Assembly: GCA_002633005.1 (NCBI GenBank)
Contig: NMRA01000449.1
Location: forward strand, 186,001 to 250,000
DNA from: Phoronis australis
Taxonomy: Eukaryota; Animalia; Phoronida
DNA: 64,000 nucleotides
Direction: 5' to 3'
The notes beneath the pieces are model-generated. The model worked only from the letters and a program-made list of their open reading frames with translations. It made no database searches and had not been told where the DNA came from. A program made the position numbers and the translations under genes. Every line of letters starts with the position of its first letter. Position 1 is the first letter of the stretch. This document shows positions 31,916 through 58,157 of the stretch, piece after piece.

Positions 31916-32856
31916 ATGACAACGCATCATTTCGCTCTACTTTTCCTGTGTACTTGTACATCAAGTTCAATTGCCAGCAGGTCGGTGTTCGATTGGTTTG
32001 GTCGTGATGCTTTCGATGTGATCATGGAAAAAATGTCCTCGGTCAGCCGTTCAAACTGTGCCGGATTGTCAGCAGCCGATCTACAGTTGCCGAAGGCTGC
32101 AGTGTCGATGGTTCCCCAGTCAAATCTCCTTCTCGACGTTGAGACACGTGTGTTTCGAAACAGGAGCTGTTTACTTAGTATGCACGACATGGCTCTTAGC
32201 CGTTCCTATTTTCTAAGCCTTATGTTCAAGATGACCAACACCACGACAGATTTCTGGAAGCAGCCCGATTGGGAATACTTCTATTTCCGACAGGCGGGTA
32301 TAGTCAATTCTTTCCCGCATTGCATCAACTCGTCGGGAGTTTACTTCGACTACCGTAAGGCTTACCCAAACTGGGTCACGGGGGTTGCTCTGAATAATAC
32401 TATCAATTTTTTTGGTCCAAGGGTATTCCGTTACGACGACACGCGAAGCGCCTGGTTGAGAGAACCAACAATATTCAGTGCGAGAGCGTGGGACATTGGC
32501 GCAGGACCCAATCGTAACTACACGAACAGCCGTCAGGGTTTCAATCCATGGTATACACTGTGGTTACCCGACAAATTAGAGGACAAAAATTTAAAGGGAT
32601 CGTTCACAATTGGGATGAAGTATTCCAGTGCACCAGGACAATGGGATAGTAATACCTATATCGGTCATTCCTTCTTTGGCCCACCTTTGACTCGTCTGCA
32701 AGATAGTGTCAATCTGCCCGTCCAATTTACGGTTCCTTACTTCGATTGCGGAAGGCGAAATAAATGGATGGTGTCCGCCGTGGCTCCCATCGTGGATGCT
32801 TTGCCGCGATACCGACGAGAGGAGGAAATACGAGAGTTTGGAGAAAGTGTTCCTAC
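31916..32856 (+). CDS. Gene B first coding exon (signal peptide + module 1 Cache-like region)
   Basis: Lies within the 333-aa ORF; acceptor ttttAG at 31895 precedes ATG 31916; donor GTGAGT at 32857. Confidence 0.92.
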
Positions 32857-35800
32857 GTGAGTGTAATTTACCTTTTTCCCTTATGCTCACTCTTTAATTC
32901 AGATTTGCTAAATTATTTTAACGAGCGATATTTATTTTTCTTGAAACTTAATTAGATATGTGTGCAGGTGTAAAATGACTTGCTTTATCTTTGAATTCGG
33001 TACCCGCCCTAACTGCATTTGAATGGGACATCCGTTAGCACTCCAAGTCCGGTGAACTCTCTCTACCTCCCTCTTCATCTCCCTCCCTCTCACTCTCCTC
33101 CAGCAACTATCAATCACGAACTAGGGGTTCTCTGATATTAACCTCGAATAGTGTAGTGGCAGCCTTATTTCTCATATTTGCAGATTCGTGGGTACGGCTT
33201 CGATGGACACCGACTGGCAAAATATAGATATAAACCCATGCCCTGAAGGCGAAGGGAATCCAGGGCCCAACATCTTTGCTGGAATAGCACGCTGTAAACC
33301 AACGACTATGGTGAGGATATCTCTTGTAATACCGTTTTCATCATCCAGCCACAAAACTGGCAACTGATATTGTGTTGTTCAAGACAAGGCCACTCTAACT
33401 AAATTGACAGATTCTATTCATTAAGTAGTTACTGTTAAAGTCCTTCTCTCAAACTGCCCATGGGTTCCAGTATCTGAAAATACTTACTACATAAAATCTT
33501 ATTTTCGACACCCTTTCTTTATATTCTTTTCGCCTTTCTTGCCAAAAGCGATTTTTAACAGTATTTGACCCTTCTCTGTGAGAGTATAATTACCGGCTGT
33601 CATCGGTTATTTCCGTACCCACATTTCCGGCTCATCAGTTCAGGAACTTGTCCTGAACGCCGCCATTTTTTCCTTGTAACTGAATGTGCTATGGCTTGCT
33701 CGAAAAGTCTTCATTATTTTGTTTTATTAGTAATATCTCGTGATTCGTTTGCATATGTAGTGTATATATAGTTTGTAGTGAGTGGTCGTTGAATTTTTTG
33801 GAATGTTACGCGTACTTAGTATGTTAAAATAGCATTGGTGTTAAGTTCCTTACGTAGGCCGGTCGACTGAACCTAGGAACCAATATGGGTCGAACCAATT
33901 TTTTTTCGGTTTTCTTTTTTTTTTGTCGTTTTGAAAAAGTACTTTGCTGTCATCGGAAAGGTAGTCAGTCTACTCAGTAAGACGATAGTCTTCACTGGTA
34001 GCTGGTGACTCAGGCTAACTACGGTCTGCCGCGGCAGTGTGACACAGGACTAACCAGCCCGTAAGTTCATGCAAGTGTCTGAAACTACCCTTGAATATAT
34101 GCAGCATTTATAATTTGACCATTTTACTTCGACAAAACAGCTTGCAACCGCATGCATTTACCGTTCGCCAGTGTCTGGTCTCGATCCGCACCGGGTCCGA
34201 TAGGTTGCGGTCCCGAGTCTGGCAAAATAATTTCTGTCAAAATTTCTTCGCCACATTTCTTCAGCAAATTCGATAAAATTGTCCGTAGTTTGATTTTATT
34301 AAAATTAAGGCGCGCTGTCGATTATTTTATCCCCCCGTTTGCTGGCTGGTAACAGTACAGGCACTGCTCCAGTCGCACTGACGGCGTTTTCTCGGCCTGG
34401 GTTCCTGAATGAATTGTACTTCCGGGTTCGCGGCAAGTTCAAAATGGCGGTGGTTCTTCGGGTGCGAATCGCGAGTGGTGCGTTCATTTAAACTTTTTTC
34501 GAGTACGGATCTTGTATTAGCTATGGGGTAAGTACTTCTTGGATGCTTATAACATCCTCTAACCATGTAATAAGGGTTAACAAAGCGTGAGAGAAGGACT
34601 TTAAAACTGAAACGTCGTGCACTTTTGTTGATTATTTCTATTAGCTTTTTCTATAAAGTGAAATATGAAGAGTTAACATAGGGGGATTTAGTCCACGGAG
34701 GGAGTCGGGGCGAAGAAGGTGGGTTCCTTCCTGAATGTAACAAAAAGAACAATCATGTGGGTTTCTTGTTCAGAAGTTACGGTGGGGTCGTTCGCGACAA
34801 CTTCAGATCCACCAGTGTACTAGCAAGAAATATTTCACAAGAAAATGCATGCAGTGAAGAGACAGTTGTATGAACAAACACGAGCCAATGAGAGGAGCAT
34901 TGACGCACATTCTTAGTTTTCTTTTACCTTGAAATGACAATAAAAGTAAATCCGAAGTCGGTTGGAAGAAAATAATATTTCTGCTACATTTTACAGTGCC
35001 AACCTTTGACTGGTTGGGGGTTTGCACGTGGCAGTTACGTGTGTGTCTGCCGACCCGGTTATCGATATCCCTCCTGGCAGAATGGGCCGTACCAAGGATC
35101 AGACATTGAGCTAGCGACAGAAGAAGAACACAAAAATGGATTCGACTGTCTGAAGATTGATTGTAAGTAGAGTTATCGACAACAAAACAGGTATAGATAC
35201 AAGATTGTTTGATCAGACACTGCGCGATGCTTTCTTCAGGCCAGCGACTGAATAAGCGTCAACAAAGTGACTCGTTTGTCAATAGGAAGTTAAAAATAAA
35301 GACGTTGTGCTTCATATTGCGACATTTCGACGTTCTTCAACACCATCATCAGGATAATACAGTCAGTACACAGATGCAATAACATATGTAAAAAGGCGAG
35401 ACAAATCCGTAGCCCATTAGCTCACAACACAGTGCGGAATAGTAATGTCAAATGTGAAAAGTGTGAGGAGGTTTATATTGCCAGAACCAGGAGAATTCTA
35501 CATAACAGACTGATTAATCATAAGGGATGGGTTGCATAAAACTTCAAAATAATCCGCTGGATAAGTTTGATTGTTGTATGACGTCAGGTGCATTCTTCAA
35601 CAATTACAACGTGGCACGTGATAATGCGACGTCATGTTGCTATACGGCGTATAATGTTTATGCAACTGGGCCCAGAAGCATAACTTACGACTGCGCTCTG
35701 TTGACTCGATCTATTGCTCTTCCATGAGATATCGTGGGGTTCTGAGGGAAAAGTGTCGTCCGTAATTAAGCTCGTAAATACAACCGATATTTTGCCCCTG

Positions 35801-38800
35801 TTTTACTACTGTAATCGTTATGCCCAATGAGCAATTGATATGTAGGTCACGTGTGCTGTGAAGAAGGTACACGTTCGTACATTGTATTCTCGTAATTTTA
35901 CCCCGTAATCTTAGGAGGACTTTAGATCTATGTACCAGTATACGAGACCACCACTCATTAAACTAATAGTCATATACTCATGTGATGTTTTTGTTGCGCA
36001 AATGATTTGTTATTAAAATGTCTTGAATAAAGAACGAGTGATTTATCACCAAAATTTAGAAATTCTACATAGAAAAGATGTAGCCAAACTTATTAAAGAA
36101 ATCCACGAAGAACACATGATGTGCTAAGCAAAGACAGTGGTACAAAGGAATGGAAGTCGACACATCTTGGAATAAACTACTACACGTACGGTTCCCTGAA
36201 CTTTCGTCATTTCACATCAACGCTATCCATGACTTGTTGCCCTCTTCAGCTAACCTAAACCTATGGGGAAAACAACCATTGGTCAATGCAAACTGTGCAA
36301 CTACAAGACTGCAGCCAAACGGCCTTAAGTAACCATATTCTCAGAGTTGGAGGACAAAGACTATCAGCATCATTGTATTGACTGTACCACCAAAAGAAAA
36401 TCGATCTAACGCATACGTCAGGAAGAAATGCAAGTATGGAGCTTTGGTCTCAGATTGAAGAAATCATGGTTGGGAAACCCACTTCTTTCCTGCTGAAATC
36501 GGCAGCCTCGGATTCTACAATCACTCAGATAGATGATGCCTAACGGCACTTGGTCTCTCCAAGGACCTGAGAATGCCAACCCTAGAGACCTGCAGTAAAA
36601 TGGTTCTATATGGAAGCTGTTAAATATGGCTCAACCGGTCGAGTAAATCATTTCATAAAGTGCAGCTAACAGAAGAATCAGAAGTTGCGAGGGAAACACG
36701 GTGGTTGAGTACTCCCAAAACTGATTTAACCCACCGATGTCTGGTTCGTTGTCCAGAAACCTCGGAACTGCCCATTCCTCCGGCTGTCAACGCAGAGTCA
36801 GTTGTTTCACAGGCTACGATGAAACTCAACAACCCTGGTAACTTGGGATACGACAACACAGTGCTACAGGCTCTTAGACATGCACCAGGCAAGAAAGATG
36901 ACATCCGTGAAGAAAAGACAACACCACTACTCAAAGGCATGTCAGGATTATTTGAGTGCAAATACAGACCCTATAGATCGAAGAAGAACCTTCAAAAGCT
37001 GATTTGTAGCATTCAGGTAAATTTCTTGCTGTATGGTAATGGAAGGTAAAGGGACCGTTATGATTTCTTGTGTTATCTACTAAAGAGTGTCGAAATGAAG
37101 CACTCTGCCATTACTGACCATGTTAATGAACTGTTGCTAACAGAGGTATCATGCTTCAGTTGTGGCAACTTTCAGTACATTGAACAGTTTTTCCTCACCA
37201 TCACATTATCATTCCCAGATCTCTTGCTTTCTCCTACTGGACCAAGTCAATTACCTAACATCTTTGACATGATAAGTGCATTCTTCTGAAGTAAAAGACT
37301 GACTGATAACACCTTTTCATGCCAAACATGTTGTCTGAAAGTTCAAGCTGTCCAGCACACACCTGCAATCCAGTCCAAGATATCGCCACTTCCATATATC
37401 TTCATCGCCCATGTACAGAGAATCCAGCAAACTATGAAGCGCACTGAAATGACACAGTCGTATTTGAACTTTGATAAGAAGCTCATCTAAGTAATGAAGA
37501 AAAGTTAAGTACACCTACACTGAAGCTTGACAAGATCATAAGGCAGGGAAACACACACATGCACCCACACGTACATCTTAAAATCTATTTCTCTCCAGTC
37601 TTCCTCTCTAAACATTACTACTAAGATGTGTTGTGGGCGCTCGTCCGTAAAAAGATGATACGTTGCCCAGGTGATGTTCTTGTGGTAGACCTACCAACGT
37701 TTAATACTTTGTCTATCATCTGCACACACTCCTGCTAGATATATATTTTGGCACCTTAGAATCAACTACAAAGGACTATTGTCCAATGCCTGAGATGGCT
37801 AGAGCAGTACGTAAAAATGACAGTACGTAATTTGCATCTCCAGTTTTACCTTCATCATACACCATGTATCCCTTTAAGCAAAAAACTCGTCCAAGCCCCT
37901 CTCAGTGAAGGAGGTCACTGACGTTTACCAGTTTACGAGCGTACACGAACGTGAAATTATAAGCGTACGTCTTCTTTAGTGCACATGTGACGTCATTAGA
38001 AATAGCAATTACATGAGAGAAGTCTTGATTATAATTACGAGCGTAAATTCGGGCGACACTTTCCCCCGAACGGCCCACGATAATGACTAGCGGGTTTATC
38101 GGTAGCAAATATCCTTGACCAGGGTCCTGTTTCATGAAACTTTTTCTGTCTTAAATTAAACAAAAATCGGACCAACTTTAGACCAAAATGTCTCAGCCTC
38201 ATTTCATGAAATCTCTTAAAACCAGATTAAAGACCGAAATTGGTCTAAGCCAAGACCGGAAGTAACTCATCTAAGGAGTAGGTTTAATGAGGCAAGGAAC
38301 GCATTCAAATGCTCGTCAAAAATACCTTCTAATCAGTTCTTGGCGAAAGTACCATCTTCCAACGTCTACTACATAGTTATTCACTTTCCAGTTGTGAAGG
38401 AATTTCTAGAAAAAAATCATAAAATTCATGATTTTTGAAATACGCGCGAGGGAAAAACTTTGCAGGCAATCACAGCAGAGCTTCTAATTTACCTCCCACC
38501 AATGAGCTATACCAGGCGTGCGTTCAGTAACGCAGGGACCTACGCTAGGGCTTAGCAAAAATCTAGCCAACGTCACATATTCTAATTCAAAAATACACGG
38601 CAACATCTCACGTAATCTCGCGAAGTCTTGCTTTTTAGCGAGGTCCTATCGCTACTGAACGGGAGGCAAATATAGTTCATTGCTCCCACTTATGATAAAG
38701 CGCGCATGCGCTTATCGTCATTCAACAAACAGATGAGTTATAAGATGGACATTAAAGGCATATCTTCATGTGAGATTTCACTACAAATCAGAGGTCGACA

Positions 38801-41800
38801 GCCAGTGCAGCAAGCAATTTTCCAAAAATAATTTAAAGTACATTTTAGAAAACATTTCAATGCTGCTATACTTTCATAACTAATCTTAAACAGTTAAGAC
38901 TACATCAGTTGCTTCTTAAATCGGACTGGCTGCTGTTAAAAGTCGCCATTGATTAGTTTACATCAAATGTTAAAGGTCACATTTTCCACATAAGGGAAAT
39001 GTGCTACGTCTATGCCTTGCTATGACAAGCAAGGAGACGGGTTTTGCCTTGCGGGACAAAAATTGACGAAGTGATGAGCACTTGACAGATCGCTTTTATG
39101 AAATTCGAAATTAAAAGAAAAATACTTTGACATCAAGTGAAATTTAAAATCTTTAAGACCAAAATGTAAAAATGCCAAGGAGCAGGTTGAATTCTGTTTC
39201 AGTGGCAGGAAACCACTCTGAACAATGCAATTTAGTATGTTTTTGCGTTCCAGGCCTCTTTAAGATTCGGCTTTTGACCTAAATGGTCCTAATTTATGAC
39301 CATTATCACTGTAAACAATTGAGAAACAAATTTTGTTGATATTTTTCACAATCTAATGCACCTAAACCGTGTCAAATTGACAAGCGTCTGCTTTCCATTC
39401 GAGAGCCGGCAAAGGCCGTAGAGACAATGCAGTGCGACTCTGTTTCAGTCTGTGTTCAGCAAAACTACTCTATGAAATCTGTATGTTCTTACTGGGGAGA
39501 GGAGAGCTGACGATAATTTTTAATGGCGCCGACCACTGTGGTGCCTCTTAATGCATATTTGCGTCTGTGGCTGTGGTTTATATTGGCTACTTGCTTTAAG
39601 TTTGTATCTTTGGAGATTTTAAATTAATTTTCATGAAATTTGGCAAATAGCTTTGGGAGACGACGACACCTTCCCATTTTTTGATGGGTTCAATGTATTC
39701 TGTGCCATCTAATGGCCATTTTTATGATATCAAATACACCTTCTGAGAAGCATAATGTTTCCGGTGCGTTCGTGGGCACATTTCAACGCTGCGCGTTTCC
39801 CTTTTTCTTGTTTAACTGTCTATTGACCATCTGGCTATCAACTCAATGTATCAACAAGTTTATCAGGTCTGGCGTTATCATTCATGGGTTTGGATTTAAC
39901 GCTGCATCTTTTGATCACAAATTCCAAGTCGACATTTCCACTGCTCAACGGTCTTTGGAGAAAAAGTTACAAAGGGGCCAATATTGAATTTGTCTTTCAG
40001 ATATGAAGGTTGTTCCCTCTGTTATCGAAAGAAATTCGTCGAAGGCGTATGATCCGAGTCTGGCTAAACAGCCTCAAAGACGAAGTGCTGGTCAAGCAGA
40101 ACAGGATTGGCTCGAAGCACGAAATAAAATCCAAACTGCAACTGTAAAGTCAAATAGAACCCCGCGGGTAGGTGCAGAATATCACAATTAGCCTTACTGT
40201 ACATGAAAATCAAATAATTTTTGCACTCTTCTTCCAAACTCATTACCTACACACGAAAGTGTGCACAGGACGACTAATCCTATTTCAAACGGTAAAAATT
40301 TTATTTGATATTTTTTTAAAGTTAGACAATTGTAATTACGAATCGAGCTCTTCTGATTATGTTCCAGGCTGCCGTAGCGCCCCTTTTTGCGTCTTTATGC
40401 TTTGAGTATATAGAAATACTGTTCTTATGTTTTGTTTGTGAACGATATGCGACATTCACAGTTTCCGGTATTCTATTTGGATGTAATATACACTTCACAT
40501 ACGCAGAACCAGTAATTACCCAGTTTTTAATTGAAGACAGGTCTTTCAATTAAAAATGGCGCAATTGCAAATAACTTGAGCGGCTTAAAGTGCTTAAAAC
40601 ACTAGAATTTCGACCTTGTTTTGACAAGTGGTTACATTGTCAACATCATTAAACCTTCCTTTATAACACTGCATATAACAACTGTGAATTCAATATCCCA
40701 AAAACGAGAAATGCAACTTAAATTGAAAGTTTCTTAGTTCCCACGGACGTGGCATGTCCAATAAAACGTGAGTTTCTTGTACAAACTTAGTCATATCCAC
40801 GCTTCTCTGTTGCCCAACGGAAAAAGTGAGTGAAAAGAGCCACGCCCGGGTCAAATACTGAGTTGTCACAAAGACACAACTGCAACGCTTTGCCACTTCT
40901 ATTGTTCCATAAAACATGGGCAAAAACCAGCAAAATCTGGCGACTTCTCATACTAAGCACAATGGAGGATGATAAATGCTGTGATTGGTTGTCCCGATTC
41001 TGCTTAATATGTATCGACCAATACATGGTCGTAACTCGAGATCACGTAATTTACATATCGTGAGATAGTGTTTGACAGCTGATCGATTGGTGGGACTTTT
41101 TTCGTGTTTTTGATCATGAAATTGATGAATTTTTAAAGCACTTTAAAGCCTCGAATTATTGAGATTTAAGTTGGGTTCTGAAACACCAAAGCAGTTCTCA
41201 CTACGTTCTCACGAATTTAACAAAACGGGTTAAACATGAGTGGCATTCGAATAAACGCCGGAGATTTTTAGACAAGGTCCGAGGCGTGTGTGGGGCCTTT
41301 TTATGCGCCCAGCTAAACAGTGCATATGTTAGCCCATGTTGCCCTGATATACATGTACGTCCGTCCCGACAAATACGTAGTTGTTAAGGAGACAATGACG
41401 CATTACCATTTCAAGACCGATTCGACAAATTATAACCCCCAATTATCAAGTAACCAGTTTTATTATTTTCGAGTGTGTTTTGTTGTACGTCTCTCTACCC
41501 GTCAAACCGCGCTATCGTTATGAACATTGGCAAAAGTGTCTCTACAGTACGACTGATGCTGATTTTCGGACGGCTTCGACTACTGAGGCAGTTTTGTTTC
41601 TTTGCTTGCATCCCACTATCTACCAAGTTCTTTGAGTCTTTATAAAATTTAGTATATGTTTAACGTTGAATTTGGGAGTAGTCTGACCCTTGCGCGGCAC
41701 ATAATGGCAGTTTTGGTTTTCTTTGCCTATGTCTCAATATCCACCAAGTTCTTGTTCTTCAAATTTGGCTAATAAGTTACTATCAAGGGGATAATGACAG

Positions 41801-44800: not shown

Positions 44801-47800
44801 CGAGTCTGAGTACGGAGATTGGAGACCGGGCCCAGGTGGAAATATATTTTTAGCAGCCACCCCACCATCCAATACATAATGAAACATAATCTTGCTAGTT
44901 TTATTCGGGATGCAAAACACAAGAGTGGGTGAACTAATCTCGGTAGTTTTGAGCCTCCTACTGTGACATTTATTTTATAGTATTGCTCTCTCTTCCGAGC
45001 CTGTTTAAAATAATTATCTGTGTAGTATGCGATTAAACACTGCGCAACATTCTATGTTGCTTTTCTTGGTAAGATTTTAGGACTTACTTGGTGTGACAGT
45101 GCCCCGCTTAGTTCGAAATTACAATTGCGCCATTTTGCCAAGATTTCCCTTCAAAGAATGCTACTGCTGCAGTTACTTGTCCTGTGTTTTTACAGGATAC
45201 AGAAATAAATAAAATTTCGATGCTTTCTCAAGTGAAACATAAAATGCAATATTTTCATACACTGAAACAGAAAGCCACAAAAGGCAGGAAACACAACTTA
45301 ACTGTGTGAACTCCAAATTCATGCAAAATTATTTTATTTTATTTAACCACCAAAAGACCTGTTTCCGATCTTTCTCCAGAAAGTCCATATAGAGCCTTCT
45401 AAACAAAATCAAGTAACATTCGAATCAAAGAGTCCAACAAAGAGGTCTGTGCAAGCTCGTTTTGACGTGAACTTTGAAGAAAAGTTGCGGCAGAAAAGAA
45501 AACGTGAAGTTTACGGGCCCGCAGGCGCACCAGTACAAGGACACTCCGTCAATACAGAACCCGAGGAACATCTCTCTCGACCAAAACGAAGCAGTTTCCA
45601 AAACCAGGTGACCGATGGTGCGTCCGTGCAGCGGATGGAACAGATATTTAGACATATTGAAAAAGTCAGCCAATCACGAGACTGCACAAAATTGCCTCCG
45701 GATCAGCTTGTGTTACCCGGAGATGTAGGATACGGTGCTAAAGAGCAGTTTCAATATCAGGTAAATATACTGTATTCCTAAGCCTAGATACGTTTTGAGT
45801 GCAAATGAATTGTATGGGATGATCTATAGGCCTCCGCCACCTTGTGGTGATATCTTGTTAAAGTGAAACATCTGTAATGATTGTTGTGAGTACTGCAACT
45901 TGGCGAACTCCGTTCAGTGGGTGAACGGCAAACTAACCAGTGGCACCCATCCTGACTCAAGGAGTGTGTTACGTAGACACAAGAGATTTCGTGCTTTGCT
46001 TTTAACGCGTGGCAAATCTAGCGAAAACTTGCGTGATCTTGCGGTTTTTTTGCTAGTTTCATGGATGGGACAGCATCAGCGAGCTTTCAGACGGATCCGA
46101 CTACCGGGGTGCCCCCTAGTGGCAATTATATTTTTTTACGTTTACCTCTGTATCTTCAGAGGCCCTCAACGAATTTTCATAAAATTTGACACGCTATCTT
46201 TCCGTTTTCGGATGAATTCGAGGTATTTTGCGCCACCATTTTTGCTGTTTTCGAATCTGTTTTTGGTGCCCGCCCCTATATCAACCAAACCGTTCGAAGT
46301 ATCAGTGTGAAAATTGGCATGTATGTTCTTAATTTGTTTCTCTGAAGTTCCTTGAAAGATTTGTTGAAATTTGGTAAACCGCTTTCTATTAAAGAAACGG
46401 TGGCATGTTCGCGTTTTTTGGATGGATTCGACGTATTTTGCGCCATCGGGTGGTCATTTTTAGGATACAAATAAACAACCCTGGAAGCACATCGATTGTG
46501 GTGCATTCGTGGGCGCATTTCAACGCTCTGCGTTGTTCTTGTATGAAATTTTATTTATATTATTTCATTGAAACTCTCAGTAAACATGCACGAAAATGTA
46601 CATAACGAACGGTGGTAATCCATTGGTACATTGCTATTGGTTGGTTTATTGCAAAAACTACGCTTGCCGATCACGTGTTCGATACTTACTGCCAAATGAC
46701 GTCAGCTCGAGCATTTCATTCTGTAGCATCTAAAGAGGGTCCCAGTTGTAGAGACTTGTCGGCACTGAGCTCTGAGTAACACATCATGGAATTCAGAGTT
46801 GCTATAGCCTCCCCTTTTTGTCAAAATAACGTCTTCTGCCTAGTAACACACACAAATTCAAAATTGTATGTGATTTACTATCTTGAAGCAATATTTCACT
46901 TCGTTATTGCCAGAGATTAGGCTCAACAAGTTGGCTTGTCACTGCCAAGCCTTTAGTTATTCTTGGGCCATGGGTCTGATCTTTTTACTCGAAATCGAAA
47001 TTATGTTTAGCATCTTTTATCACAACTCTGTGCGAATTCAATATACGTGTCTTTTATTCTATGCTCGAATACGCAATAGTTTATGCATGACTTTCCAGTC
47101 TAGGTTCTCACTTGATGACCCCGAGATTTGAGCAACAAACTCGAGTAAAAACTTGAGATTTCGAGTTACGACTCGAATTTTTAACCTTAATGCTGGGGTC
47201 ATCAAGTGAAAAACAGGATTCAGTTATTCACGTCAGCCATTGTGTACTCCGTGGGCACTTGCCTTGAATTCGCACAAAAAATTATATACTCGGAAGTTGT
47301 CAAAAATTATTCCGGATTCGAATTCGAGTACAAAGATTAGACTCTGGACCCTGGCTGACAGTTCTCGATTTTTACACCGGTGAACCCGTTTGGAATGAAA
47401 TAAGCTTATTCAGTATTATTTTACAATCCGTTTCAATTGGATTCATTCCTTGCAGGCTCGAACGGCGAATGCTATGGCCCATTACCTGTCAGCAACATAT
47501 GAGAACCTGGTGCCAAAACGACAAAACTGGGGTGCGGTACACGGAGGTCGCCTACCGAACAAGGATCTGCTTATGGCCGATGTTCTGTCTCAAGTAATGG
47601 CGGATCACAAGATACGTTCATTTGGGGTATGGTTTGATCGTTACCAATACCAAGAGCCAGTCGGTGACGATTTAACGGCGATCAAAAGAGAACTCTTTGC
47701 TCCTTACGCTTTTCAAGACGGAGATCAGTACAAAGTCGTTGATATGGCTGGTGACCCGGATGTCGGTGCTTATCTAAAAGCTGATTGGTTCAGGAAAACA

Positions 47801-50800
47801 AAAAAGCGATGGATGAATACCGGCTCCGGTGTGAGGAAACACAAGCTAAAACCACGCATAAGGTTTGCCTTTGCAAGCAAAATTTGTTCGTTTATATTTG
47901 GGTCGACGGCAGCCAGTTTCGGGTACATTTGGGTCGACGGTAGCCTTGGTACAAAGCTGTATACTAAATATACAGCTTTGCGCCGATGTGTGTAAAATAG
48001 ATAAGATAGAATCTGACACAAAAGCAGTGTCATTAAAAACTACAATCTTCCTTGAGTAAACTAAATTATTTAACGGTGTTGGAAAAATGGCGTTCTACTG
48101 TTATTTTGCTGCTGAAGTTGTGGAGCGATCTTCTGCGTCGGCTTTCGGCGCCATGAAATATTGCGTCACCAATATGGCCAGTTTCTTTTTTCGCCGATTC
48201 TTCAATCAACTGTTGCTCTTTCACTAGGTTGCATACACGTCGCAACAAATCATTGGAACTGGTTTCACTTCATTATAAGTTTTTAGAATTTCGACACCGA
48301 AAACCGAATTTCGGAACAAATAGTCGGTGGGCCAGATCTCATAGCGTTCATCCTTGTGAGTACTTTTGGGGGGCAACCTAGTTTTTTCTATGTGGCTAGA
48401 TAATATACCTATAAATCAAATTCCAAAAAGTTCCCACGTCTACACTTGCACATTTTTTAAAAAAAAAATATGAAGCACATTCCTGCCACTTGGTGGCGCT
48501 TTTCTATTGAATTGACCAATCAGAGAGCCAGATTGTATTGTTGTGCTTAGTTACTTCAATATGGCTGCTCCCATGGAGTGTGATGCCTGTATAATTCAAG
48601 GTTTATCAAACAGCACAAAATTGTGATGTCAGAGCCTAAAGAAGCTTAGGAAAGCTTCCTGACGAAAGCTGATTGACTGTGGAACTCTGTAGATCAGTAG
48701 ATCAAAAAGAAGAAGAGGTGTCACAAACGTTTGTGCAGAAAACAGCTGCATGCCCTGGTAGCCTACACAGTATACTGCTGAGTGCTATAGACTAGAATAC
48801 CAAGTGTCAGACCAGAAAATTGAAAGGACATAGAACGGCATAGCAACGTTTCAAGGCACCAACAGTAGTACTAAAGCTGAAGTTGCTGAAAGTGATACAG
48901 ATGTTATCCAAGATTTCCCAAGAAAATCAATCACTTCCAAAATCTGAAACACCCAATTAACCTGAACAAGATAGGAACATTCTGAAACATGAGTGCATCA
49001 TTTGTTAGCAGGAAAAGTACATTATGGGCCACATTTCAAGAAAGAGAAAGAAGTATAGCTTTCAAAAACAGGTACGTGTTTTTTAAAAATACATTTTGGT
49101 GTTTTCCACGTGTGATTCAGTATTATCACCAGTTGTTTTTTAACTTGTTCAGCCCCTTGACTGCCTAGGCCTTAGACAATACTGCTGACCCAGTAGAGAC
49201 GATGATCATACTATAGGTACTTCATATGCCGGATACTTTTCGGCAAATTATGTTCCTATAAGTTTAGAAGTACCGCGTAGAGAGATGCCTCTGAGGAGGT
49301 CGTTAATGTTTTCATTTGTTCCCAGTTTAAACAAATACTCCTGCAATCCTGTTTTTCGAACACTCCATTCAGTTGCCACATCGACACTGCTTGCGCTAAG
49401 GGATAATCCTATGGCGTTATACTGTGGGTGTGATTTTAAAGCACTTTAAGTCTAAAATTTTTGAGAAGGTTAAATGGAGTAGATAGTTGCAAACAACATG
49501 CCCAAGTGGCCGTCATCCCCTGCCGTAGTCTCAATTTTTTGTAAACATTAATTACTTAGGTAGCAGCTGCAATGATAATTAAATTAAAGTGCCTAAGTGG
49601 CCATCGTCGCCGTCGAAATTTGAGGACGATGGAAGCCACTGTCCATTTCGTCAAACGTCGATTACCTTAAGTGTAAATCGATTGACTATGGTTTGAGCAT
49701 CTGATTTTAAAAAAATTAAATTTCAATCACTGCACAGGTATATCAGCTGATTTATTTTCAGCTGCATCTACTGATCTAATTATTAGACGATCAACATTAT
49801 TAGGCTACAGGTCAAACGGCATGTAAATTTGTTAGGCTGGTGGTGGATCAGCTCCTGATACGTCCGTCTGAAAAAGTTGCATGCCAACTCACTCATAGTT
49901 GAATGTTAAATTAGTGTTAACAGTTCGGGTTTTTTTCAGTTGGACTTGTATCGCAAGCAACAGCTCAGTCCAGAGCCCTGAATATGCAAATGAAATTCAA
50001 AGATAAAGACCTTGTGTCTTAGAAGCCAAGTACCACAGATCATCATGCTGTAAAAAAGAGAAAGACAAAGATTGTGGAGAGTGACGAATCCCCAGTTTTC
50101 AGAGATGTTTTTCTACAGTTTTGTTTGGAGTTCATTGAATCAAAGCTTCTAGCACATGGAGATGTCATTTGCCTTTCAAAAATAAAGCAAGACTTTGAAG
50201 CTGTTCTTCAGAAAGCTGGTGTGCATGAAGTTATTTGGACAGGCAATCTTAAGAAATATTGTTGAAGCTACTCACTGTTGTAGTTTGTGCCTGACTAAGA
50301 GATACGAAAGTGAATTGAGGCTAGTGTTCAATAATTCACTTGCTGACTCTAATTAACACAGCCCATAGTAACATATTTTGAATCAAACATTTGCCCAAAT
50401 AGTGCCCGCCTCCAAACAAGAACTTAGTGTTTGACCCTTCATTGCCTGCGGGCTAATCACCAGTGTGCAGTGCTGTACCCTCTCTAATCGACCATAGTTG
50501 GCTCCTTGGCGGTGGAGCTTTGCAGTTAATATGTATGGCAATGACCGCATCTCCATTGACAGTACTAAACGATGAACGCTGCAAGTGCAAAAAGAACATG
50601 TGTGCTGGGAAACTGAGTTTGTGCTGCAATGCTGGGTCAAACTGTACAGAAATGTGCAGCTGTGACAACTGTAGTAACATCAGCAACACTGACTGCATAA
50701 CATTGGATAGTTCTTTGACAGGCCAACCCTAAATAGACCTCCAACCCCGTTATTTCCTTTTTTGTATTAAAAAGTTAATTTTATTTGTTGATTAAGTCAT

Positions 50801-53800
50801 AGAAAGTACATACTTTGATCATTGTCATGTATTTGTCTCATACTGCTTAATAAACGCTGTCAGAATAATCTATTTTAATACAGTCTTTGTGCACATTCAC
50901 AGAGATCATTCAACTATATTGTTTTTGTACTATAACATATTTCTGGTGTATTATGCAAACAAGCTGTATTTTACACCATTAGTCAATGTTTTAGTCATTG
51001 AGGCACAAATTTTGCCCAGTCTCAAGTGTTTTGTGTTATTTTTGTTGCCTGACAATGCCAGAATAACTTCCTAGAAACATTCAGACTTAGTTTGTATTTT
51101 TGCCACTAGGTGTCTCTTTACGTTTTTTAAATTTCACTGTTTACAATTAATTTACAATAGTAAAACATGTAATGTGAGTGTAATATTGTTCAATGCAATG
51201 GCACTGATGGGACCATATTACTTGTTTTACAAAAAAGTCACCAAAACAGTTGTTTTTACAAATATAAGTTTACTAAGCTCTTTGGTGATTATTAGGTAAC
51301 TTCAAACTCAAATTTCTCAAAAATGTGCAACTTTATATGTGGGAACTTTTTAGATTTTGAAAACACTCTAATAAATGAATAAAAAACACCAAAATAAAAT
51401 TGCCCCCCTAAAGTACTCACAAAAACCATTTTCTAGAGGCCCTACAAATTCTGGCCCACCGACTAAAATTTTGCTGCTGCGAAGTAGTAACAAAAATTTA
51501 GGAAATGGCACGTGCGCGTGACACGAGCGTACTGTTTTCAAAACGACAACATACTTTTCTTTATTACAAAAGGTCGAGAATGTCGCAAGAAAATGACGTT
51601 TGTTGCATTGTTTTTCACTTAAACGGTTTTAACGGGCAAGGTGAGTGTCTGTTCATTCCCAGATTTTGTATGCACATGCTGTCCGGTCTTTAGCTCTACA
51701 TGTTGATCCAGGTTTCACGGCGAGTTGACGAGCAGAACTACCCTGGCTGTGTGCAATTTCGGGGTCTATGGAAGAAAAACACACAGTGGTACCTAGCCAG
51801 CCAGCTAGCTGTATGAAGACTGTCGTCAAAATACAGCTAGGTACCACTGTGCGTATTTCTTCCGCAGACCCCGAAATTGCTCACAGCCAGGGTAGTTCTG
51901 CTCGTCACCTCGCCGTGAAACGTGTATCAACATGAAAAAGTTAAGGACAGAACGGGATGCATGCAAAATCTGGGAGTCAACCGACACTCACCTTGCTCGT
52001 TACAGCCATTTAAGTGAAAAACAATGCAATAAACGTCATTTTCTTGCGTAGCTCTCCACCTTTTCTAACAATGAAAAGTATGTCGTCGTTTTGAAAACAG
52101 TGCGCTCGTATCACGCGCGTGCGCCATTTCCTAGATTTTTGAGACATCTCTCAGGAGATGATGATAGCTTGGTAGCAGCAAAATTTCTTCTGAAATTCGC
52201 TTTTTCTGTATCAAAATTCTAAAAATTTTATAGTGAAGTGAAACCAGTTGCGATAATTTGTTGTAACGTGTACGCAACCTCGAGAAAGAACAACAGTTGA
52301 TTGAAGAATCGGCGAAAAAAGAAACTGGCCAATAGGTGACGCAATATTTCATGGCGCCAAAAGCCGTCGCTAAAGATCGCTCCATAACTTTAGCAGCAGA
52401 ATAACGGTATAACGCCATTTTTTCCAACACCGTTAAATAATTTAGTTTACTCAAGGAAGACTGTAGTTTTTAATGACACTAATTTTGTGTCAGATTTTAT
52501 CTTACCACTTTTTTACCCACATCGGTGCAAAGATGTATATTTAATATACAGCTTTGTACCAAGGCTAAGTGGTACCTAGCTGTATTTTGACGATAGTCTT
52601 CATACAGCTAGCTGGCTGGCTAGGTCGACGGCAGCCAATATCGGCTACATTTCATTGTTCGTCACTGCTTTTGATAACTACTTTACGTTATAGTCGGCTA
52701 GCTGGATCAAAAGCGGTCAACTGCTTGTTTCGTTTCCTAATCCAGGCTTTCGAGCAGCGGAACTCTGTTGCTCGACCTGTGATTTTCTTATGTTTCTGTA
52801 GGTTACAGTGACCTGTTATCACCTGCCATACCATTTGGGCTTGGGACTTGGTCAGACTCATAAGCTTGGTAGTAAGACCCAGCTCACCCTATCTGTTGTT
52901 TTTTTAAAGTCATTTCTGTGAGCACAAGATATTTTCCATCATTTTAACGACTATTCCTTTATTCCTAAAACGCAGGGGACGTAACGGACAGGTAATATGA
53001 GTTCTTGAAATTTAAGTTCTGAACCAAATTTGTGCCTCCAACGTATTGAGGGATCCAGGCAACTGTGATACTGTTACATTTACCGAAATTCCATTGAAGA
53101 CACGACTTTGATCTGTTTTTACGTGTTTAATTTCAGTTCTTTCAAACTCTCTAAATCGAGATCTTGTCTTTACATCACAACAGTGCAATGAAAATCCAAA
53201 CGACATCAGTAGGTAACATAATTTATAAAGTGATATTTCGAGACACATATCTCATCTTCAGGCTACTATTTACAACTAGCTCACAGTGAAACACATCAGA
53301 AATGACGAATGTAATATAACACGTGAAGTTGGCATGAGCAACTATGACGATAAAAACATGCAGATATAAATATAACGTACACAATAAATCTGAAACTAAA
53401 TAAGGCGATCCAGATCCTCCCAAGGATATTATTGTTTCACAAAATGTAGAATATAAATAGGTAAATAAAACAACAAGAATGGATCAACTAAAATTTTCGG
53501 ATGTAATAACGTCCTTTGTCAACTGTTTCTGTTGACAAAGGACGTTCTTACATTCGAAAATTTCAGTTGATCCCTTCATTCTTTTATTTACCTATTGATA
53601 TAAATATGCATACGTTGCTGTGCAACATAATCTACAGATCACCTAAATAATGATAGTCTTTCAAGTTCCAGTTAGCTGCTCATTCAAACTGGGTTTTTCA
53701 AGCATTATTAGAAGCGACTCTAATGTTCGTAACCTGTGTACATCATTTTCAATGACTCGAATGACTGTCAACAATCTCCTGACGAGTTATCTTGCGACCA

Positions 53801-56800
53801 TGAACATTTTGAAAATGGTCTTTTATGCAGAACATGAAGACCTCTAATTTAGTGTTGAGAAATAATATTAGTCGTGAGAAGGTCCGCCCTGTTGTTAGAT
53901 GCAATGTTGTTTATGAGTTTACTTGTCCCACTGTCGAATGTTTTCGTCCTCATCAGAAACAAAATTACATTGGGCACACAGTCTGTTCCTTGTCGCGACG
54001 ACTTTCAATGCATTTACAAAATGGCTCCATAAAAGACCATTTTCAAAATGAGCAGCTAACTGGAACTCGGAGGACTCTATCATTATTTAGGTGATCTGTG
54101 CATTCATAGACTATAGTACGTTGTCTATAATCTATGGTGCATTATGATGCACAGCAACGCGTGTATATTTTTATAGCCTATGTGTGTTTTTATCGTCATA
54201 GTTGCGCATGCCAACTTCACGTGTTATTTTACATTCGTCATTTCTGATGTGCATTTCACTGTGAACTAGTTGTAAATAGTAGCCTGAAGATGAGATATGT
54301 GTCTCGAAATATCACTTTATAAATTATGTTACCTGCTGATGTCGTTTGGATTTTCATTGCACTGTTGTGATGTAAAGACAAGATCTCTATTTAGAGAGTT
54401 TGAAAGAACTGAAATTAAACTCCTAAAAACAGATCAAAATCGTGTCTTCAATGAAATATGTATACGGGAAAGATTACTGCCGAATTATAGTGATTTACCG
54501 AAATTATTTAGGTTTACTTAGTGATACATTGCGGAACAATAGACTATGTGATTCCACAACAATGCTTTTAAGGCTTTATAGTTGTCCGGCTATCTGACAG
54601 GATAGCAATAGATTTATTTTGGATTCCTTTTCGAACCATTCTTCTGACACTTTAGTAATTGCAAAGGCCTCTGTTTCGAAAACAGCACTATGTTTTCCGA
54701 GATAACGGTATTTTTCAATCGGTGGTATATCAGTTGGGTAGGCTTATTCAATACGAAAACCCGCACCAACGAGTTCATTTATTTTTGAACCACCACCGTA
54801 TGCTTTAATGCACCATTTCTATTTAAAAAGATAAATTTTGATTTTCTTTCAAAATGCCTTGGGTTTTTACTGACCGATCATTTGATATGCACAACAATGG
54901 AAGTTCAATTCTAGCACTGTTTCACCTGTCAACATGTCTTTTTGTTTTCTCATCGTTTCCGTTACATTTGTTTTAGAGTTGACAAGCAAGGATTGGCGGA
55001 AGCTAACTTCTTCTATGATTCCTACTACTATCATGGCCCAAAGTTTAGCCACGGTTACTGGTCGAATCCATATTTTGCATGTAACGGCTATGTGAATGAC
55101 TGGGTGATTACTTTTGCCGCTCCTTTCTTTAGGATGGATCCGCTGAGTTACGGCACTGTGAAATTTATGTAAGTTGCCTCAAAATCAATAGGTCCCTCGC
55201 GCATTATACAGTTATAGAACTGCTTTGTCCCGGAGATAAAAAAGGCGCATTGTTTTTGGAATGTCAGGCACATTTTCACAGGTCTTGTCGGAAACCGTCG
55301 AGGTATACGGGCGTGGAAATATTCCGATTTCATCCGTTTAAAAGTACCGGAAACGAAAAGGTATCTTCAAGAAAAAGGATTCTGTTCTGTTCAAAAATAC
55401 CCAGGCCAACGAACTCGCTTTATGCGCTTGCTCCGAATTTTTCGTTGTCTGATTGATGTCAGGTAGGCAGCGAAGTTGGCATCAGACATCCAAAGATATT
55501 TCAAGTTTATCCACCTTTCTTCCGTCGGCTCACCACACCTATAATACTTCGGAAGGAAAAATAGAGTAATTTACCCGAAAAAAACTTGTAAACAATGCCA
55601 CAACATCAATGAACATGTGCGCGTGACGGACATTTCGACCTAGTGGATAAATATGGCGAGATTCTACTGTCGCTGCGTAATCCAGGACACAGCAATTATC
55701 AATTTCATGGCCCGTAATGCTGGTTGTTTTCAGATTCCACTCGAACATCGAGTAGCCCGAATTAAAAACTTGTAACCTATGCTGGCAAAAAATAATGTAA
55801 AATGTAACAATTAAATAGACAGATTAACAATAAAATTTCAGTTCTGTTTGACTTGGTGTTATTACATAAGTAGTTTCGGAAACGCATGTAAGTTTCACCC
55901 CTCTTTCGGAACTGAGTTAACTTCGCAATGAGATTCATTGATGTACGCATTTGGGGTCAATTTCACATCATTCATTTATGCAATTTATCTTCTTTCCAGT
56001 GGCGTCGTTACAGTTGATATCAAGCTAAGTTTCCTTGACATTAGTCAGTGTTCGCAGCCATTCTGGGTTGCTAATGCCTTCAAGAACACTGCTTACTGCG
56101 ACCACGAGACAACTCACGTAAGGATTTCCTGCCAAGTACATCTTTCTCATGTCGTCCAATTAGTAAACAGACCGGACGTTTGATCCGCGACGTGAAAATA
56201 TTCTTGTGTGAAACTTGTCAGATCTCTTTAGTCTTGAGTGGGCTACCTTCCTATAATGTGACACGTCCATTGATGCGTGTTCTGCTGGGCAAAACCCAGT
56301 GAGACCTGTTGTGTGCCCCCTAATTACACGTAAGAAGGTAGATTTGAAGCCTTTGGGAAAGCTCGTTTGTAAGCATCCGATCTGCCTTCTGATCAGGTGT
56401 TCCATGTGCCTCTTTGTGAATACCCCGCATCTAATGAATCGGTGATACATGCAGTGCTGCTTTTAGTTTGCTGGTAAATAATTATTTTACACCATCAATA
56501 ATTAATTTAGGTCAATGAAATTAAATTTACGCTGTAAATAATTAACTTAAGCCGTTGAAAGTTAATTCACGCCATTAATAAATATTTTTCACCGTTAGTA
56601 ATAACTGATTTACACACGTAATTTACGTGCTTAAGGTTCACCCATTTGACCAACAAAATGTCGCGGACGTTTCTCGTTTGTCTGGCTGAGTGGTTGAAAG
56701 GGCTGAGAAGTTCAAAAGACACTATTGTATCACCCCTGGCTCGCTGACTGTCAGTCATAGACACTACCAGCAATCATATACTTCATTTCGTAATTCTTGT

Positions 56801-58157
56801 TTTATCATCGTTTTTATGTTTTGTGCTGGTCTCGTCACTTTTGCTATTCTCTTGTTGTTATTAGTAATCAGAGGCGGATCTACAGGGGGTTCCGGGGGTT
56901 CAAACCCCCCCCCCTCGGGACAGGATCAAAAATAAAGATTGAAAAAAAATTCGCCAAAAAAAAAACACAATCAGCGACTACAAACCACAAAAAATCTCAC
57001 ACAGTACGGGGAAACCCCCTCCCGACCTTCCTTGCGCTCGGCACTACGGGCCTCGGATTCGCTCGAATCCGAAACCCCCTCCTTACTGAAAACGTAGATC
57101 TGCCACTGATTAGAATAGTAATAACATTTTTCTGCTTCAGTGTGTCCCAGTCGAAGGAAAGCGATTTACGAAAGGGGCGTATAGATGTCTCTGTAAACAG
57201 GGCTACGAGTATCCATTCATTGAGAACGCGTGGTTCTTCGACGGGGCGGCAATGGAATCAGAACATCGCAAAAAACAAAAAGGGATATTCAACAGGTATA
57301 TTCGAGTTGCTTTTTAGTAGATAGACCCATTTATGAAATGATTTTTTCTAATCGCAAGGCTTGAGAAATTCGTATAATTTTGGTCAGAAGTGTAAGTTAC
57401 ATGGTTGACGTGTGAACTACGCGCAGAACCGGATCAATGTTTCTCAAAACTCAAAGCTATAAGAAGTTCAGAAGCCCAGGTAATTTGAGCTGCCACCGCG
57501 ATCACCACAATTTCCGAGGGGTCCCCAAGGCTACGGTGGGACTAGGCCCTTAATTTGCGCTGGTCCATTAGGCTATAGCTTATGCATAATCCGACACTGA
57601 CCACTTATAAACAGTTTATTCCTATGGTAAGTCACTGTAAGTCTACTTGTCTGTAAGAGACGGGTGCTGCCCATGAACATCAGTTCTCTGTCAAGGTCTT
57701 TGGGTGAACGCTTTAGCCCGTTCACATACTGGATATAACTCTAGCGTTTTCTGTAGAACTTTCGTTCAATAGCAAAACACGCAAGTCACATGAAAGGTTG
57801 TAAGTGTCAATTTTGCTGGCGTTTTGCTGGAGGTCTGAGTTGTCCCAAACATTGGCGTTTTCACTAGCACTTTCGTGCATTTCAGCCTCGGTAGCTAGAT
57901 TTAGCTAACATGCTGTTCATCTAAGTCTCGCGTGACATTCTTTATAACTATTAAGATTTCAACATACAATGTTTTCATCTTCTTGCATCTAAAAACGCTG
58001 TCTTATGGTATAACGTCATTGCAGGTACGATCACATGAAGTGTCGCATTGGACGCTCTTCATCTCTTCGGGCGAGTACGTTGCTGTATCTAATGACTCTG
58101 ATTTTGCTGGCGGCGAATTACACAGGAAATAATTATGACTCGTCAGCGAGCGCATAA
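31916..58157 (+). CDS. Gene B (complete, 928 aa): signal peptide + GPR158/179-type ectodomain/EGF x2, no 7TM; join(31916..32856,33184..33310,34997..35162,40001..40167,45380..45760,47456..47862,54977..55168,56000..56117,57141..57295,58025..58157)
   Basis: All introns are GT-AG and phase-compatible; 2787 nt open frame. The N-terminus MTTHHFALLFLCTCTSSSIAS looks like a signal peptide. Paralogous to gene A throughout. Confidence 0.9.
33184..33310 (+). CDS. Gene B exon (FVGTASMDTDWQNIDINPCPEGEGNPGPNIFAGIARCKPTTM)
   Basis: tgcAG / GTGAGG; paralog of 2218..2344. Confidence 0.92.
34997..35162 (+). CDS. Gene B exon, EGF-like module 1
   Basis: tacAG / GTAAGT; CQPLTGWGFARGSYVCVCRPGYRYP. Confidence 0.92.
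35321..35352 (-). ncRNA. Degenerate minimal hammerhead ribozyme motif
   Basis: Minus strand CUGAUGA-U-GGUGUU-gaag-AACGUC-GAAA-UG-UC; helix I does not pair convincingly. Confidence 0.45.
36120..36640 (+). mobile_element. Decayed 3' part of an RLE-type non-LTR retrotransposon (HERO/R2-group-like)
   Basis: WNKLL..SFHINAIHDLLPSSANLNLWGK, then LTVP..EN...AYVRKKCKY..L....GW....FPAEIGSLGF, with stops and frameshifts. Confidence 0.7.
36819..37430 (+). pseudogene. Decayed ubiquitin-specific protease (peptidase C19)-like fragment
   Basis: Ordered motifs LNNPGNLGYDNTVLQAL (Cys box), EVSCFSCG....EQFFLTITL, DNTFSCQTC, LPYIFIAHVQR, across stops and frameshifts. Confidence 0.65.
39440..39812 (+). mobile_element. 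HINE-family 3' fragment
   Basis: Ends TTCGTGGGCACATTTCAACGCTGCGCGTT...CTTGTT, like the other copies. Confidence 0.65.
40001..40167 (+). CDS. Gene B linker exon (YMKVVPSVIERNSS...)
   Basis: ctttcAG / GTAGGT; phases 1 and 0, as in gene A. Confidence 0.82.
41298..42440 (+). mobile_element. Old HINE-family copy
   Basis: TTTTTATGCGCCCA start, GTCCGTCC, diverged array units. Confidence 0.55.
42454..44835. mobile_element. TIR-bounded DNA element (~2.4 kb), possibly PIF/Harbinger-like
   Basis: 34-bp inverted ends CTGGGCCC(A/G)GTCTCCAATCTCCGTACTCAGACTC (42454-42487, 44802-44835) with TACTCGA-rich subtermini; no clean TSD. Confidence 0.65.
45380..45760 (+). CDS. Gene B exon: linker (RQKRKR, RPKR) and start of module 2
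   Basis: tttctccAG / GTAAAT; DCTKLPPDQLVLPGDVGYGAKEQFQYQ. Confidence 0.88.
46075..46542 (+). mobile_element. HINE-family internally deleted 3' portion
   Basis: GTGCCCCCTAGTGGCAA unit; terminal GTGGGCGCATTTCAACGCTCTGCGTTGTTCTTGT. Confidence 0.75.
46965..47351. mobile_element. MITE with imperfect TIRs
   Basis: GGGCCATGGGTCTGATCTTTTTACTCGAAATCGAA vs the reverse complement of TTCGAATTCGAGTACAAAGATTAGACTCTGGACCC; inner IR CTTGATGACCCC / GGGGTCATCAAG. Confidence 0.65.
47456..47862 (+). CDS. Gene B exon, module 2
   Basis: ttgcAG / GTTTGC; VLSQVMADHKIRSFGVWFD, ELFAPYAFQDGDQYK. Confidence 0.9.
47941..52567. mobile_element. Foldback/palindromic element (~720-bp arms) interrupted by a nested transposon
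   Basis: Starts TAGCCTTGGTACAAAGCTGTAT and ends ATACAGCTTTGTACCAAGGCTA; left arm 47941-48320 + 51466-51795 is the reverse complement of 51837-52567. Confidence 0.85.
48321..51465 (+). mobile_element. Academ-like DNA transposon, internally deleted and non-autonomous
   Basis: 16-bp TIR TAGTCGGTGGGCCAGA, AAA 3-bp TSD, subterminal IR TTGTGAGTACTTT.GGGGGGCAA; remnants DLV..EAKYHR (~50010-50040), LHCLRANHQCAV (~50437) and CKCKK..C.....CC..G.NCTEMCSCDNCSN (~50580-50680). Confidence 0.75.
53088..54457. mobile_element. Penelope-like retroelement 3' end in inverted (back-to-back) configuration, with GIY-YIG remnant
   Basis: Central + strand NVVYEFTCP..C...YIGHT...LSRRLSMH.QNGSIKDH; - strand RLRTLESLLIMLEKPSLNEQ; arms 53088-53370 and 54180-54457 are inverted copies, each with a CUGAAGA..GAAA-UA-UC hammerhead-like core. 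Confidence 0.82.
53456..53597. repeat. ~140-bp hairpin/MITE inserted in the left Penelope arm
   Basis: GGATCAACT.AAATTTTCG.ATGTAA.AACGTCCTTTGTCAAC / GTTGACAAAGGACGTT.TTACAT.CGAAAATTT.AGTTGATCC; absent from the right arm. Confidence 0.75.
54977..55168 (+). CDS. Gene B exon, module 2 (GYWSNPYFACNGYVNDWVITFAAPFF)
   Basis: ttttAG / GTAAGT; W..PY..C....W motif typical of the GPR158 ectodomain. Confidence 0.92.
56000..56117 (+). CDS. Gene B exon (GVVTVDIKLSFLDISQCSQPFWVANAFKNTAYCDHETTH)
   Basis: ttccAG / GTAAGG. Confidence 0.92.
56869..57108. mobile_element. hAT-like MITE
   Basis: CAGAGGCGGATCTAC / GTAGATCTGCCACTG inverted ends; similar ATTAG(T)AAT flanks. Confidence 0.7.
57141..57295 (+). CDS. 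Gene B exon, EGF-like module 2
   Basis: ttcAG / GTATAT; CVPVEGKRFTKGAYRCLCKQGYEYPFIENAWFF. Confidence 0.92.
58025..58157 (+). CDS. Gene B terminal exon (YDHMKCRIGRSSSLRASTLLYLMTLILLAANYTGNNYDSSASA*)
   Basis: ttgcAG acceptor, phase 2; TAA at 58155-58157. Confidence 0.85.

Follow-up and report, generated by a model that had tools for sequence, protein, structure and literature searches.

Gene B, the subject of this study, lies in a 64,000-nucleotide stretch of Phoronis australis contig NMRA01000449.1 (the window) and encodes two modules of the type found in the ectodomains of the G protein–coupled receptors (GPCRs) GPR158 and GPR179, without a seven-transmembrane (7TM) domain. When rebuilt from splice signals and homology, the gene comprised 10 coding exons (GT-AG introns; + strand, 31916–58157; 2787 nt) encoding 928 amino acids (aa) with 0 internal stops, and the exons were the same as those of an earlier first-pass annotation. 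That annotation had missed the size of the family to which gene B belongs, a glycosylphosphatidylinositol (GPI)-like tail, furin-type sites in the linker between the modules, and a tandem paralog in the window, gene A.

Gene structure, transcription, and domains of gene B

Transcription was assessed with reads of three runs from a single study, to which the contigs of another, fourth run were added. Four of the nine coding junctions of gene B were found among the RNA matches listed (15 of 17; 15 of 118): exon 1–2 in 1, 4, and 10 reads per run, exon 2–3 in 0, 4, and 14, exon 4–5 in 6, 7, and 11, and exon 9–10 in 2, 1, and 9 reads and one contig. One RNA contig spanned 58022–58278, that is, across the gene B stop. 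RNA thus upheld four junctions of the first-pass model, the last one included, and a 3′ untranslated region (UTR) past the stop, whereas the other five, exon 3–4 included, were not among the matches listed and are deduced from splice signals, from homology, and by comparison with the paralog. The absence of a 7TM domain was confirmed within the window, which ends 5.8 kb past the gene B stop: 7tm_3 matched 0 of 69 downstream and 0 of 64 intergenic + strand frames. The architecture of gene B is real, and the gene is expressed. Single N bases occur at 3088, 24120, and 43572, all outside coding exons.

Pieces of the PF22572 domain (GPR158_179_EC) were detected in exons 2–3 for module 1 (E values, 3e-5 and 2e-5) and in exons 7–9 for module 2 (E values, 1e-3, 3e-7, and 5e-5), in agreement with the duplicated ectodomain of Cache and epidermal growth factor (EGF)-like domains that had been proposed. 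The curated Pfam cut-off for PF22572 was reached alone only by the exon-8 frame. The EGF-like cysteine-rich domain of PF22572 was found twice in gene B and as two stretches in homologs, and weak PF22673 Cache matches were located in exons 1, 6, and 7. BLAST of one module against the other gave 29% identity over 144 aa (E value, 6e-14), and self-BLAST of the whole gene B protein did not detect the repeat. A signal peptide is likely, as judged from hydropathy and pattern.

A model of exon 1 built from the window's own sequence had a mean predicted local distance difference test (pLDDT) score of 79.6. In a wide structure search, its best match among Cache domains had a Z score of 12.2 (root-mean-square deviation [rmsd], 4.1; 141 aligned), the first 11 rows were all Cache sensors (Z 12.2 to 8.0), and GPR158 was matched with Z 6.5. 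Foldseek returned nothing at E ≤ 0.001 for this model, which is a cut domain with its last strand missing, and the top two rows were Cache domains. The Cache-like fold was thus recovered by the wide search but not by Foldseek at that threshold. The full-length model of a homolog, P0008 (mean pLDDT, 69; predicted template modeling score, 0.73), gave 8 Foldseek matches at E ≤ 0.001, GPR179 and GPR158 among them, and its module 2 aligned to GPR179 with Z 10.2 (rmsd, 4.5; 242 aligned). A profile match to GPR158 had an E value of 3e-19.

Alignment via an invertebrate-type GPCR placed the end of the chain at the first Cys of the spiral loop of GPR158, approximately 25 residues short of the first transmembrane helix (TM1), which corrects the earlier statement that the protein ends where TM1 should begin. 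The spiral loop with two disulfides before TM1 is missing, the chain becoming tail after that loop's first Cys, and the gene B product has neither a 7tm_3 domain nor the cytoplasmic RGS7 site.

Table 1. Features of genes B and A in the window
Feature	Position	Strand	Content and evidence
Gene B 5′ UTR exon, start undefined	31500..31660	+	GT..AG joint 31660>31896, 5 reads in a single run
Gene B coding exon 1	31916..32856	+	Likely signal peptide (~aa 1–21), N-terminal helices, most of Cache domain 1; exon 1–2 junction in RNA
Gene B exon 2	33184..33310	+	Final Cache strand (contains D322); EGF-like domain 1 begins
Gene B exon 3	34997..35162	+	EGF-like domain 1; exon 2–3 junction in RNA
Gene B exon 4	40001..40167	+	First part of low-conservation linker; exon 4–5 junction in RNA
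Gene B exon 5	45380..45760	+	Remaining linker and beginning of module 2
Gene B furin-type basic cluster RQKRKR (aa 504–509)	45488..45505	+	Predicted cleavage site
Gene B furin-type site RPKR (aa 534–537), right before module 2	45578..45589	+	Predicted cleavage site
Gene B exon 6	47456..47862	+	First part of Cache domain 2
Gene B exon 7	54977..55168	+	Second part of Cache domain 2
Gene B exon 8	56000..56117	+	Last Cache strand, start of EGF-like domain 2
Gene B exon 9	57141..57295	+	EGF-like domain 2; exon 9–10 junction in RNA
Gene B exon 10	58025..58157	+	Final conserved Cys (C891); GPI-signal-like tail extended by 13 polar residues; stop codon
Likely 3′ UTR of gene B, end approximate	58158..61500	+	Stranded read depth to ~61500, up to 26 in run X4
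Gene A, tandem paralog truncated by window start	2..18218	+	Open frame, homology to gene B
Gene A exons 1–5 in window	2–657, 2218–2344, 4650–4815, 6254–6429, 7076–7441	+	
Gene A further exons	9374–9774, 11175–11366, 12549–12666, 14921–15075, 18113–18218	+	

The double-ectodomain family, gene A, and repeats in the window

A search with gene B exon 1 identified 11 longer proteins, and their profile retrieved 285 proteins, of which the 120 listed came from molluscs, annelids, a nemertean, a brachiopod, flatworms, and insects. Crustaceans, a tardigrade, a horsehair worm, a rotifer, and an acanthocephalan fragment were added by look-up. The first-pass suspicion that similar uncharacterised proteins exist in invertebrates was thereby substantiated, and an Atlas cluster of 1026 members carries PF22572, with 7tm_3 not listed. 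The best whole-chain matches shared approximately 35% full-length identity with gene B, and arthropod members (insects and others) shared 67–79% identity with a lacewing query across the 120 matches listed. One Drosophila member is 807 aa long. Database names are either "uncharacterized" or taken over from GPR158/179; examples are Drosophila simulans GD20036, Anopheles AGAP001418, and Lingula LOC106151208 ("GPR158/179 extracellular domain-containing protein").

PF00003 was found neither in the 120 profile-search matches listed nor in the 120 lacewing-query matches listed, and an internal hydrophobic segment was present in 0 of 122 homologs, compared to 5–6 such segments in three GPCR controls. 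Public records label the members P0113, P0291, P0315, P0330, P0414, and P0456 as "G-protein coupled receptor (158/179)"; those of them listed with precomputed Pfam domains lack 7tm_3, and the labels are likely name transfer errors. Deuterostome, cnidarian, and nematode names did not occur among the named matches listed, many rows carrying no name.

A FastTree analysis of 109 module sequences, from which three long-branch proteins (6 of 115 rows) had been left out, yielded an unrooted tree with a long-branch warning. Module 1, module 2, and the GPCR ectodomains formed one group each (support 100, 96, and 99, respectively), and the window modules fell inside the module 1 and module 2 clades, respectively. 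Therefore, as far as an unrooted tree can tell, the two modules diverged before the ecdysozoan–spiralian split. Gene B shares the features that define this double GPR158-ectodomain family, namely a putative signal peptide, two modules in their own clades, a short hydrophobic tail, and no 7TM domain, and it is one more, divergent member of a large, already databased, uncharacterised family. Within the family, molluscs have two old paralog groups and further local duplicates (among the matches listed), and the annelid Owenia has two copies, on contigs of equal length and possibly in tandem like genes A and B. P0145, P0218, and P0277 are very divergent; P0145 (1010 aa) has a long proline-rich stalk followed by a GPI-like tail.

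In line with the first-pass annotation, which knew of no functional description, no functional study of the family was found in the literature; supplements and subscription papers were mostly beyond reach, and a fly study under a D. melanogaster name could exist. A survey of choanoflagellate GPCRs covers the Cache/EGF combination solely as a module of GPCRs (PMC12716839). Drosophila CG16791/argus, considered as a possible characterised ortholog, was rejected as a different protein: its cDNA primer peptide (PMC8177895) is absent from all family proteins collected, and its second Met is at residue 52 (PMC8177895) versus 15 in all 8 of the Drosophila/Musca family members examined.

Gene A shares 56% identity and all nine intron phases with gene B. 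In the modules, amino-acid identity reaches 68% and 60%, and shared four-fold codons have different third positions at 54 of 73 and 52 of 68 sites; amino-acid identity in the linker is 29%. This high third-position divergence with retained amino-acid identity points to an old duplication under selection. Genes A and B are mutual closest relatives in the trees, long-branched sister paralogs with changes at near-invariant family positions. In a quick tree they joined one mollusc paralog group (97) on a long stem; the grouping was absent from the module 1 tree, and placement of the host by it was not relied on for these two reasons. The C-terminal tail of gene A is GPI-like and of a length typical of the family.

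Several repeats occupy the window. Intron 6 of gene B holds a ~4.6-kb element (47941–52567) with terminal inverted repeats, whose arms (47941–48284 and 52222–52567) are 83–92% complementary. The element has heavy read coverage, a GT..AG joint (49068>49937) spliced in 14, 21, and 15 reads, and a weak CXC-domain match at 50457–50729 (E value, 0.001; under the cut-off). It is likely a transcribed multi-copy DNA transposon, and its reads may stem from other copies. A second inverted-repeat element (53088–54457; 204-nt arms, 97% complementary) encloses a frame with a weak GIY-YIG match (E value, 0.003) and is likely a mobile-element remnant. A dispersed family of ~300-nt repeats lies at 16557–17608, with related copies at ~5250–5870, 13000–14500, 22800–23850, 39630–39800, and 46060–46550; it also forms a 451-nt tandem array of 2.3 copies and sits in introns of both paralogs and between genes A and B.

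Linker, tail, predicted pairing, and pocket of the two modules

Of 92 non-ecdysozoan members, 91 carried the motif R-x-K/R-R in the linker, the exception being the rotifer protein P0218, which has no strict site. These members contained 217 sites in 11,194 linker residues versus 12 in the remaining 72,091 residues, and composition shuffles gave a mean of 32 and a maximum of 52 sites (1000 shuffles); nameless proteins were grouped by similarity, and the counts are not independent, the proteins being related. The last site lies a median of 26 residues before the first Cys of module 2. The median linker length is 41 residues in ecdysozoan members compared to 109 in the others, and the gene B linker has two basic clusters, at aa 504 and 534. 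The enrichment of sites suggests that a proprotein convertase probably cuts the linker. Cys counts are even, so that no inter-module disulfide is obvious.

Small residues at the omega site, a spacer, and a terminal hydrophobic stretch that no cytoplasmic tail follows make up the GPI-signal pattern. Tails were counted in 128 of 132 proteins, the other 4 being without the last Cys. A tail of 24–36 residues with a hydrophobic end followed the last Cys in 115 of the 128, and at least 3 small residues stood at positions +2 to +7 after it in 118. Judged from pattern and hydropathy, the GPI-anchor pattern thus occurs in 115 of 128 tails and in gene A, and gene B is atypical. The short hydrophobic tail before the stop that had been noted earlier does exist, at ~14 residues (19-residue hydropathy peak, 1.52), but 13 polar residues intervene before the stop. 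Because of this polar stretch, the gene B product may be poorly anchored or secreted.

When modules 1 and 2 of P0008 were folded as separate chains, the pair scored 0.82 versus 0.00 for the best of 3 controls. Agreement between runs covered at least 72% of contacts, the partner had a pLDDT of at least 77, and the interface comprised 243–264 contacts. Of the solved pairs, 51 of 78 reached the mark for pairing, as did 2 of 108 mismatched ones; for eukaryotes, the counts were 39 of 65 and 2 of 126, respectively. The closest inter-module contacts fell between the N-terminal helices; GPR158 (PMC8611064) and GPR179 (PMC11437087) ectodomains dimerise via Cache helices. The earlier suggestion that one chain mimics a GPR158 ectodomain dimer is therefore predicted to hold for this homolog. 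Several core interface residues are near-invariant in the family.

The pocket was mapped by sequence motif, without superposition, with the dCache amino-acid motif dCache_1AA as reference (Y121, R126, W128, Y144, and D173 in PctA numbering; PMC8915833). W212, Y275, and D322 were present in gene B module 1, but the family lacks the Arg, so that the motif is incomplete. Across the family, module 1 has Y275 in 128 of 132, D277 in 130 of 132, and an acidic residue at position 322 in 123 of 131 proteins, compared to Y in 79 of 131, D in 61 of 131, and D or E in 78 of 130 for module 2. By this mapping, the module 2 pocket is eroded and module 1 keeps the amino-group half. At the carboxyl-binding position of module 1, which precedes W by two residues, 113 of 132 proteins have Asn rather than Arg, and the aromatic pair is kept. 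Module 1 agrees at the shared positions with part of the amine-sensor motif dCache_1AM (aromatic pair, terminal Asp, no Arg, and further positions; bioRxiv 10.1101/2023.04.06.535858), and in this respect its pocket pattern resembles that of amine sensors. Gene B keeps Y275, D277, and D322, and the three residues are common to 15 of 15 invertebrate-type GPCR ectodomains, whose pocket state is that of module 1. Glycine cannot be assumed as the ligand here, since even GPR179 showed no response to it (PMC11437087).

Proposed mechanism and rival explanations

We give about even odds to the reading that the gene B product is a surface ectodomain, GPI-anchored and cut at the linker into two parts, that acts as a non-signalling co-receptor or adaptor. 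Beyond the expressed gene with two modules and no 7TM domain, a signal peptide and a GPI anchor would bring the protein to the surface; the pattern makes this probable for the family and slightly better than a coin toss for gene B, with its polar tail extension. Convertase cleavage would leave two non-covalently held parts in spiralians, whereas insects have a short, presumably uncut linker and a single chain. The N-terminal helices are predicted, with fair confidence, to pair the modules like the ectodomain dimer of GPR158/179, so that module 2 would tether module 1 to the membrane. Somewhat tentatively, module 1 may keep a pocket suited to a small amine or an amino acid, possibly a modulatory site, module 2 being mainly structural. 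Output would run through a bound membrane or matrix partner without a G protein, by analogy with GPR179–pikachurin, alpha2delta, and CACHD1.

Several known systems come close. GPR158 (mGlyR) and GPR179 likewise have N-terminal helices, a Cache domain, and an EGF-like module, with helix-mediated pairing predicted here; unlike them, gene B has two divergent modules per chain, a GPI-like tail, and convertase-type linker sites, and its product, without spiral loop, 7TM, and cytoplasmic part, is not a GPR158/179 receptor. The entire architecture recurs in the unnamed protostome double-ectodomain family, of which genes A and B are members, albeit long-branched ones and, for gene B, with an extended polar tail. 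Alpha2delta, which is cleaved into two chains, GPI-anchored, and Cache-based (PMC9901441), and CACHD1 are also extracellular Cache proteins without a signalling part of their own, and weak fold matches (Z 5.6–6.2) were obtained. However, the VWA domain that characterises them had no match in exon frames or full-length homologs, which have no room for one; the family has two modules, each a single Cache with its EGF domain, instead of a double Cache, shows no sign of an inter-chain disulfide, and lacks the Arg of the amino-acid motif, which makes this an analogy and not membership. SmGBP of Schistosoma mansoni is a membrane-associated, dimeric, ligand-binding class C ectodomain without a 7TM domain (PMC3206071), but it is a single-copy Venus flytrap module that binds glutamate and belongs to another domain family (PMC3206071). 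The bacterial dCache_1 sensors PctD, PacA, McpX, CqsR, and PctA share the Cache fold (Z 8–12) and, by motif mapping, the aromatic pair, Tyr, and terminal Asp, whereas the family has a single Cache domain per module, an EGF domain, and no transmembrane output.

Several observations weigh against the co-receptor reading. The linker sites are absent in 39 of 40 ecdysozoan members (present in 1 of 40), and therefore cleavage is not essential to the family. The polar extension of gene B, at 13 residues, exceeds the 95th percentile of the family (9). The complex was predicted for P0008 and not for the window protein, and its pass may reflect memory because similar GPR158/179 dimers have already been solved. 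The idea that the predicted interface is unusually conserved was not borne out overall (module 1, p = 0.27; module 2, p = 0.04 versus the rest), and at near-invariant interface positions both window genes carry other residues (G for A127, and A or S for R569, numbered as in P0008). In the pocket, which is placed by motif, gene A carries Gly in place of D322.

A bolder form of the reading, which we regard as doubtful, is an asymmetric, free-standing, GPI-anchored, convertase-matured sensor built from GPR158 parts, with one Cache pocket that would recognise an amine or amino-acid transmitter and modulate a partner, whether a channel, a GPCR, or a matrix protein; it would be alpha2delta-like and of independent origin in protostomes. 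Unlikely, too, is a ligand sink or decoy, anchored or shed, that buffers a small amine or amino acid or competes with Smog/GPR158-type GPCRs and has no fixed partner. The module 1 residues held in common with all 15 invertebrate-type GPCR ectodomains would suit a sink, as would the amine receptors CqsR, PctD, PacA, McpU, and McpX among the structural neighbours of window Cache domain 1 (Z 8.3–10.1), and SmGBP provides a precedent (PMC3206071). Nevertheless, a sink needs neither two specialised modules kept distinct since before the ecdysozoan–spiralian split nor the high arthropod identity among the matches listed, gene A has lost the D322-equivalent acid, and a common fold proves no ligand.

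Cleavage could instead free module 1 as a distant-acting soluble factor and leave module 2 anchored, or gene B's entire product could be secreted. The several linker sites, the even Cys counts, and the weak gene B tail agree with such a shed signal, but the large predicted interface and the retention of both modules in one insect chain make it improbable. Lower still in our estimate is a role in adhesion or synapse organisation in which the pocket is vestigial and only the outer protein surfaces count: the Cache domain of GPR179 binds pikachurin by outer loops and ignores glycine (PMC11437087), and the module 2 pocket is eroded, yet the module 1 pocket residues are near-invariant. A mis-modelled or truncated GPCR with 7TM exons farther on, for which the five junctions outside the RNA matches listed and the nearby window end leave room, is very hard to reconcile with the exon 9–10 junction, the reads across the stop, the lack of 7tm_3 downstream, the same end in gene A, and the absence of PF00003 among the family matches listed.

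The ectodomains of GPR158 and GPR179 serve both small-ligand sensing and synapse organisation, and a conserved family that, as predicted, keeps the ectodomain dimer without the receptor would separate these extracellular jobs from G-protein signalling. The value of the finding lies in the family rather than in the window gene: its highly conserved Drosophila member is open to genetics, and members are also present in schistosomes, mosquitoes, and aphids.

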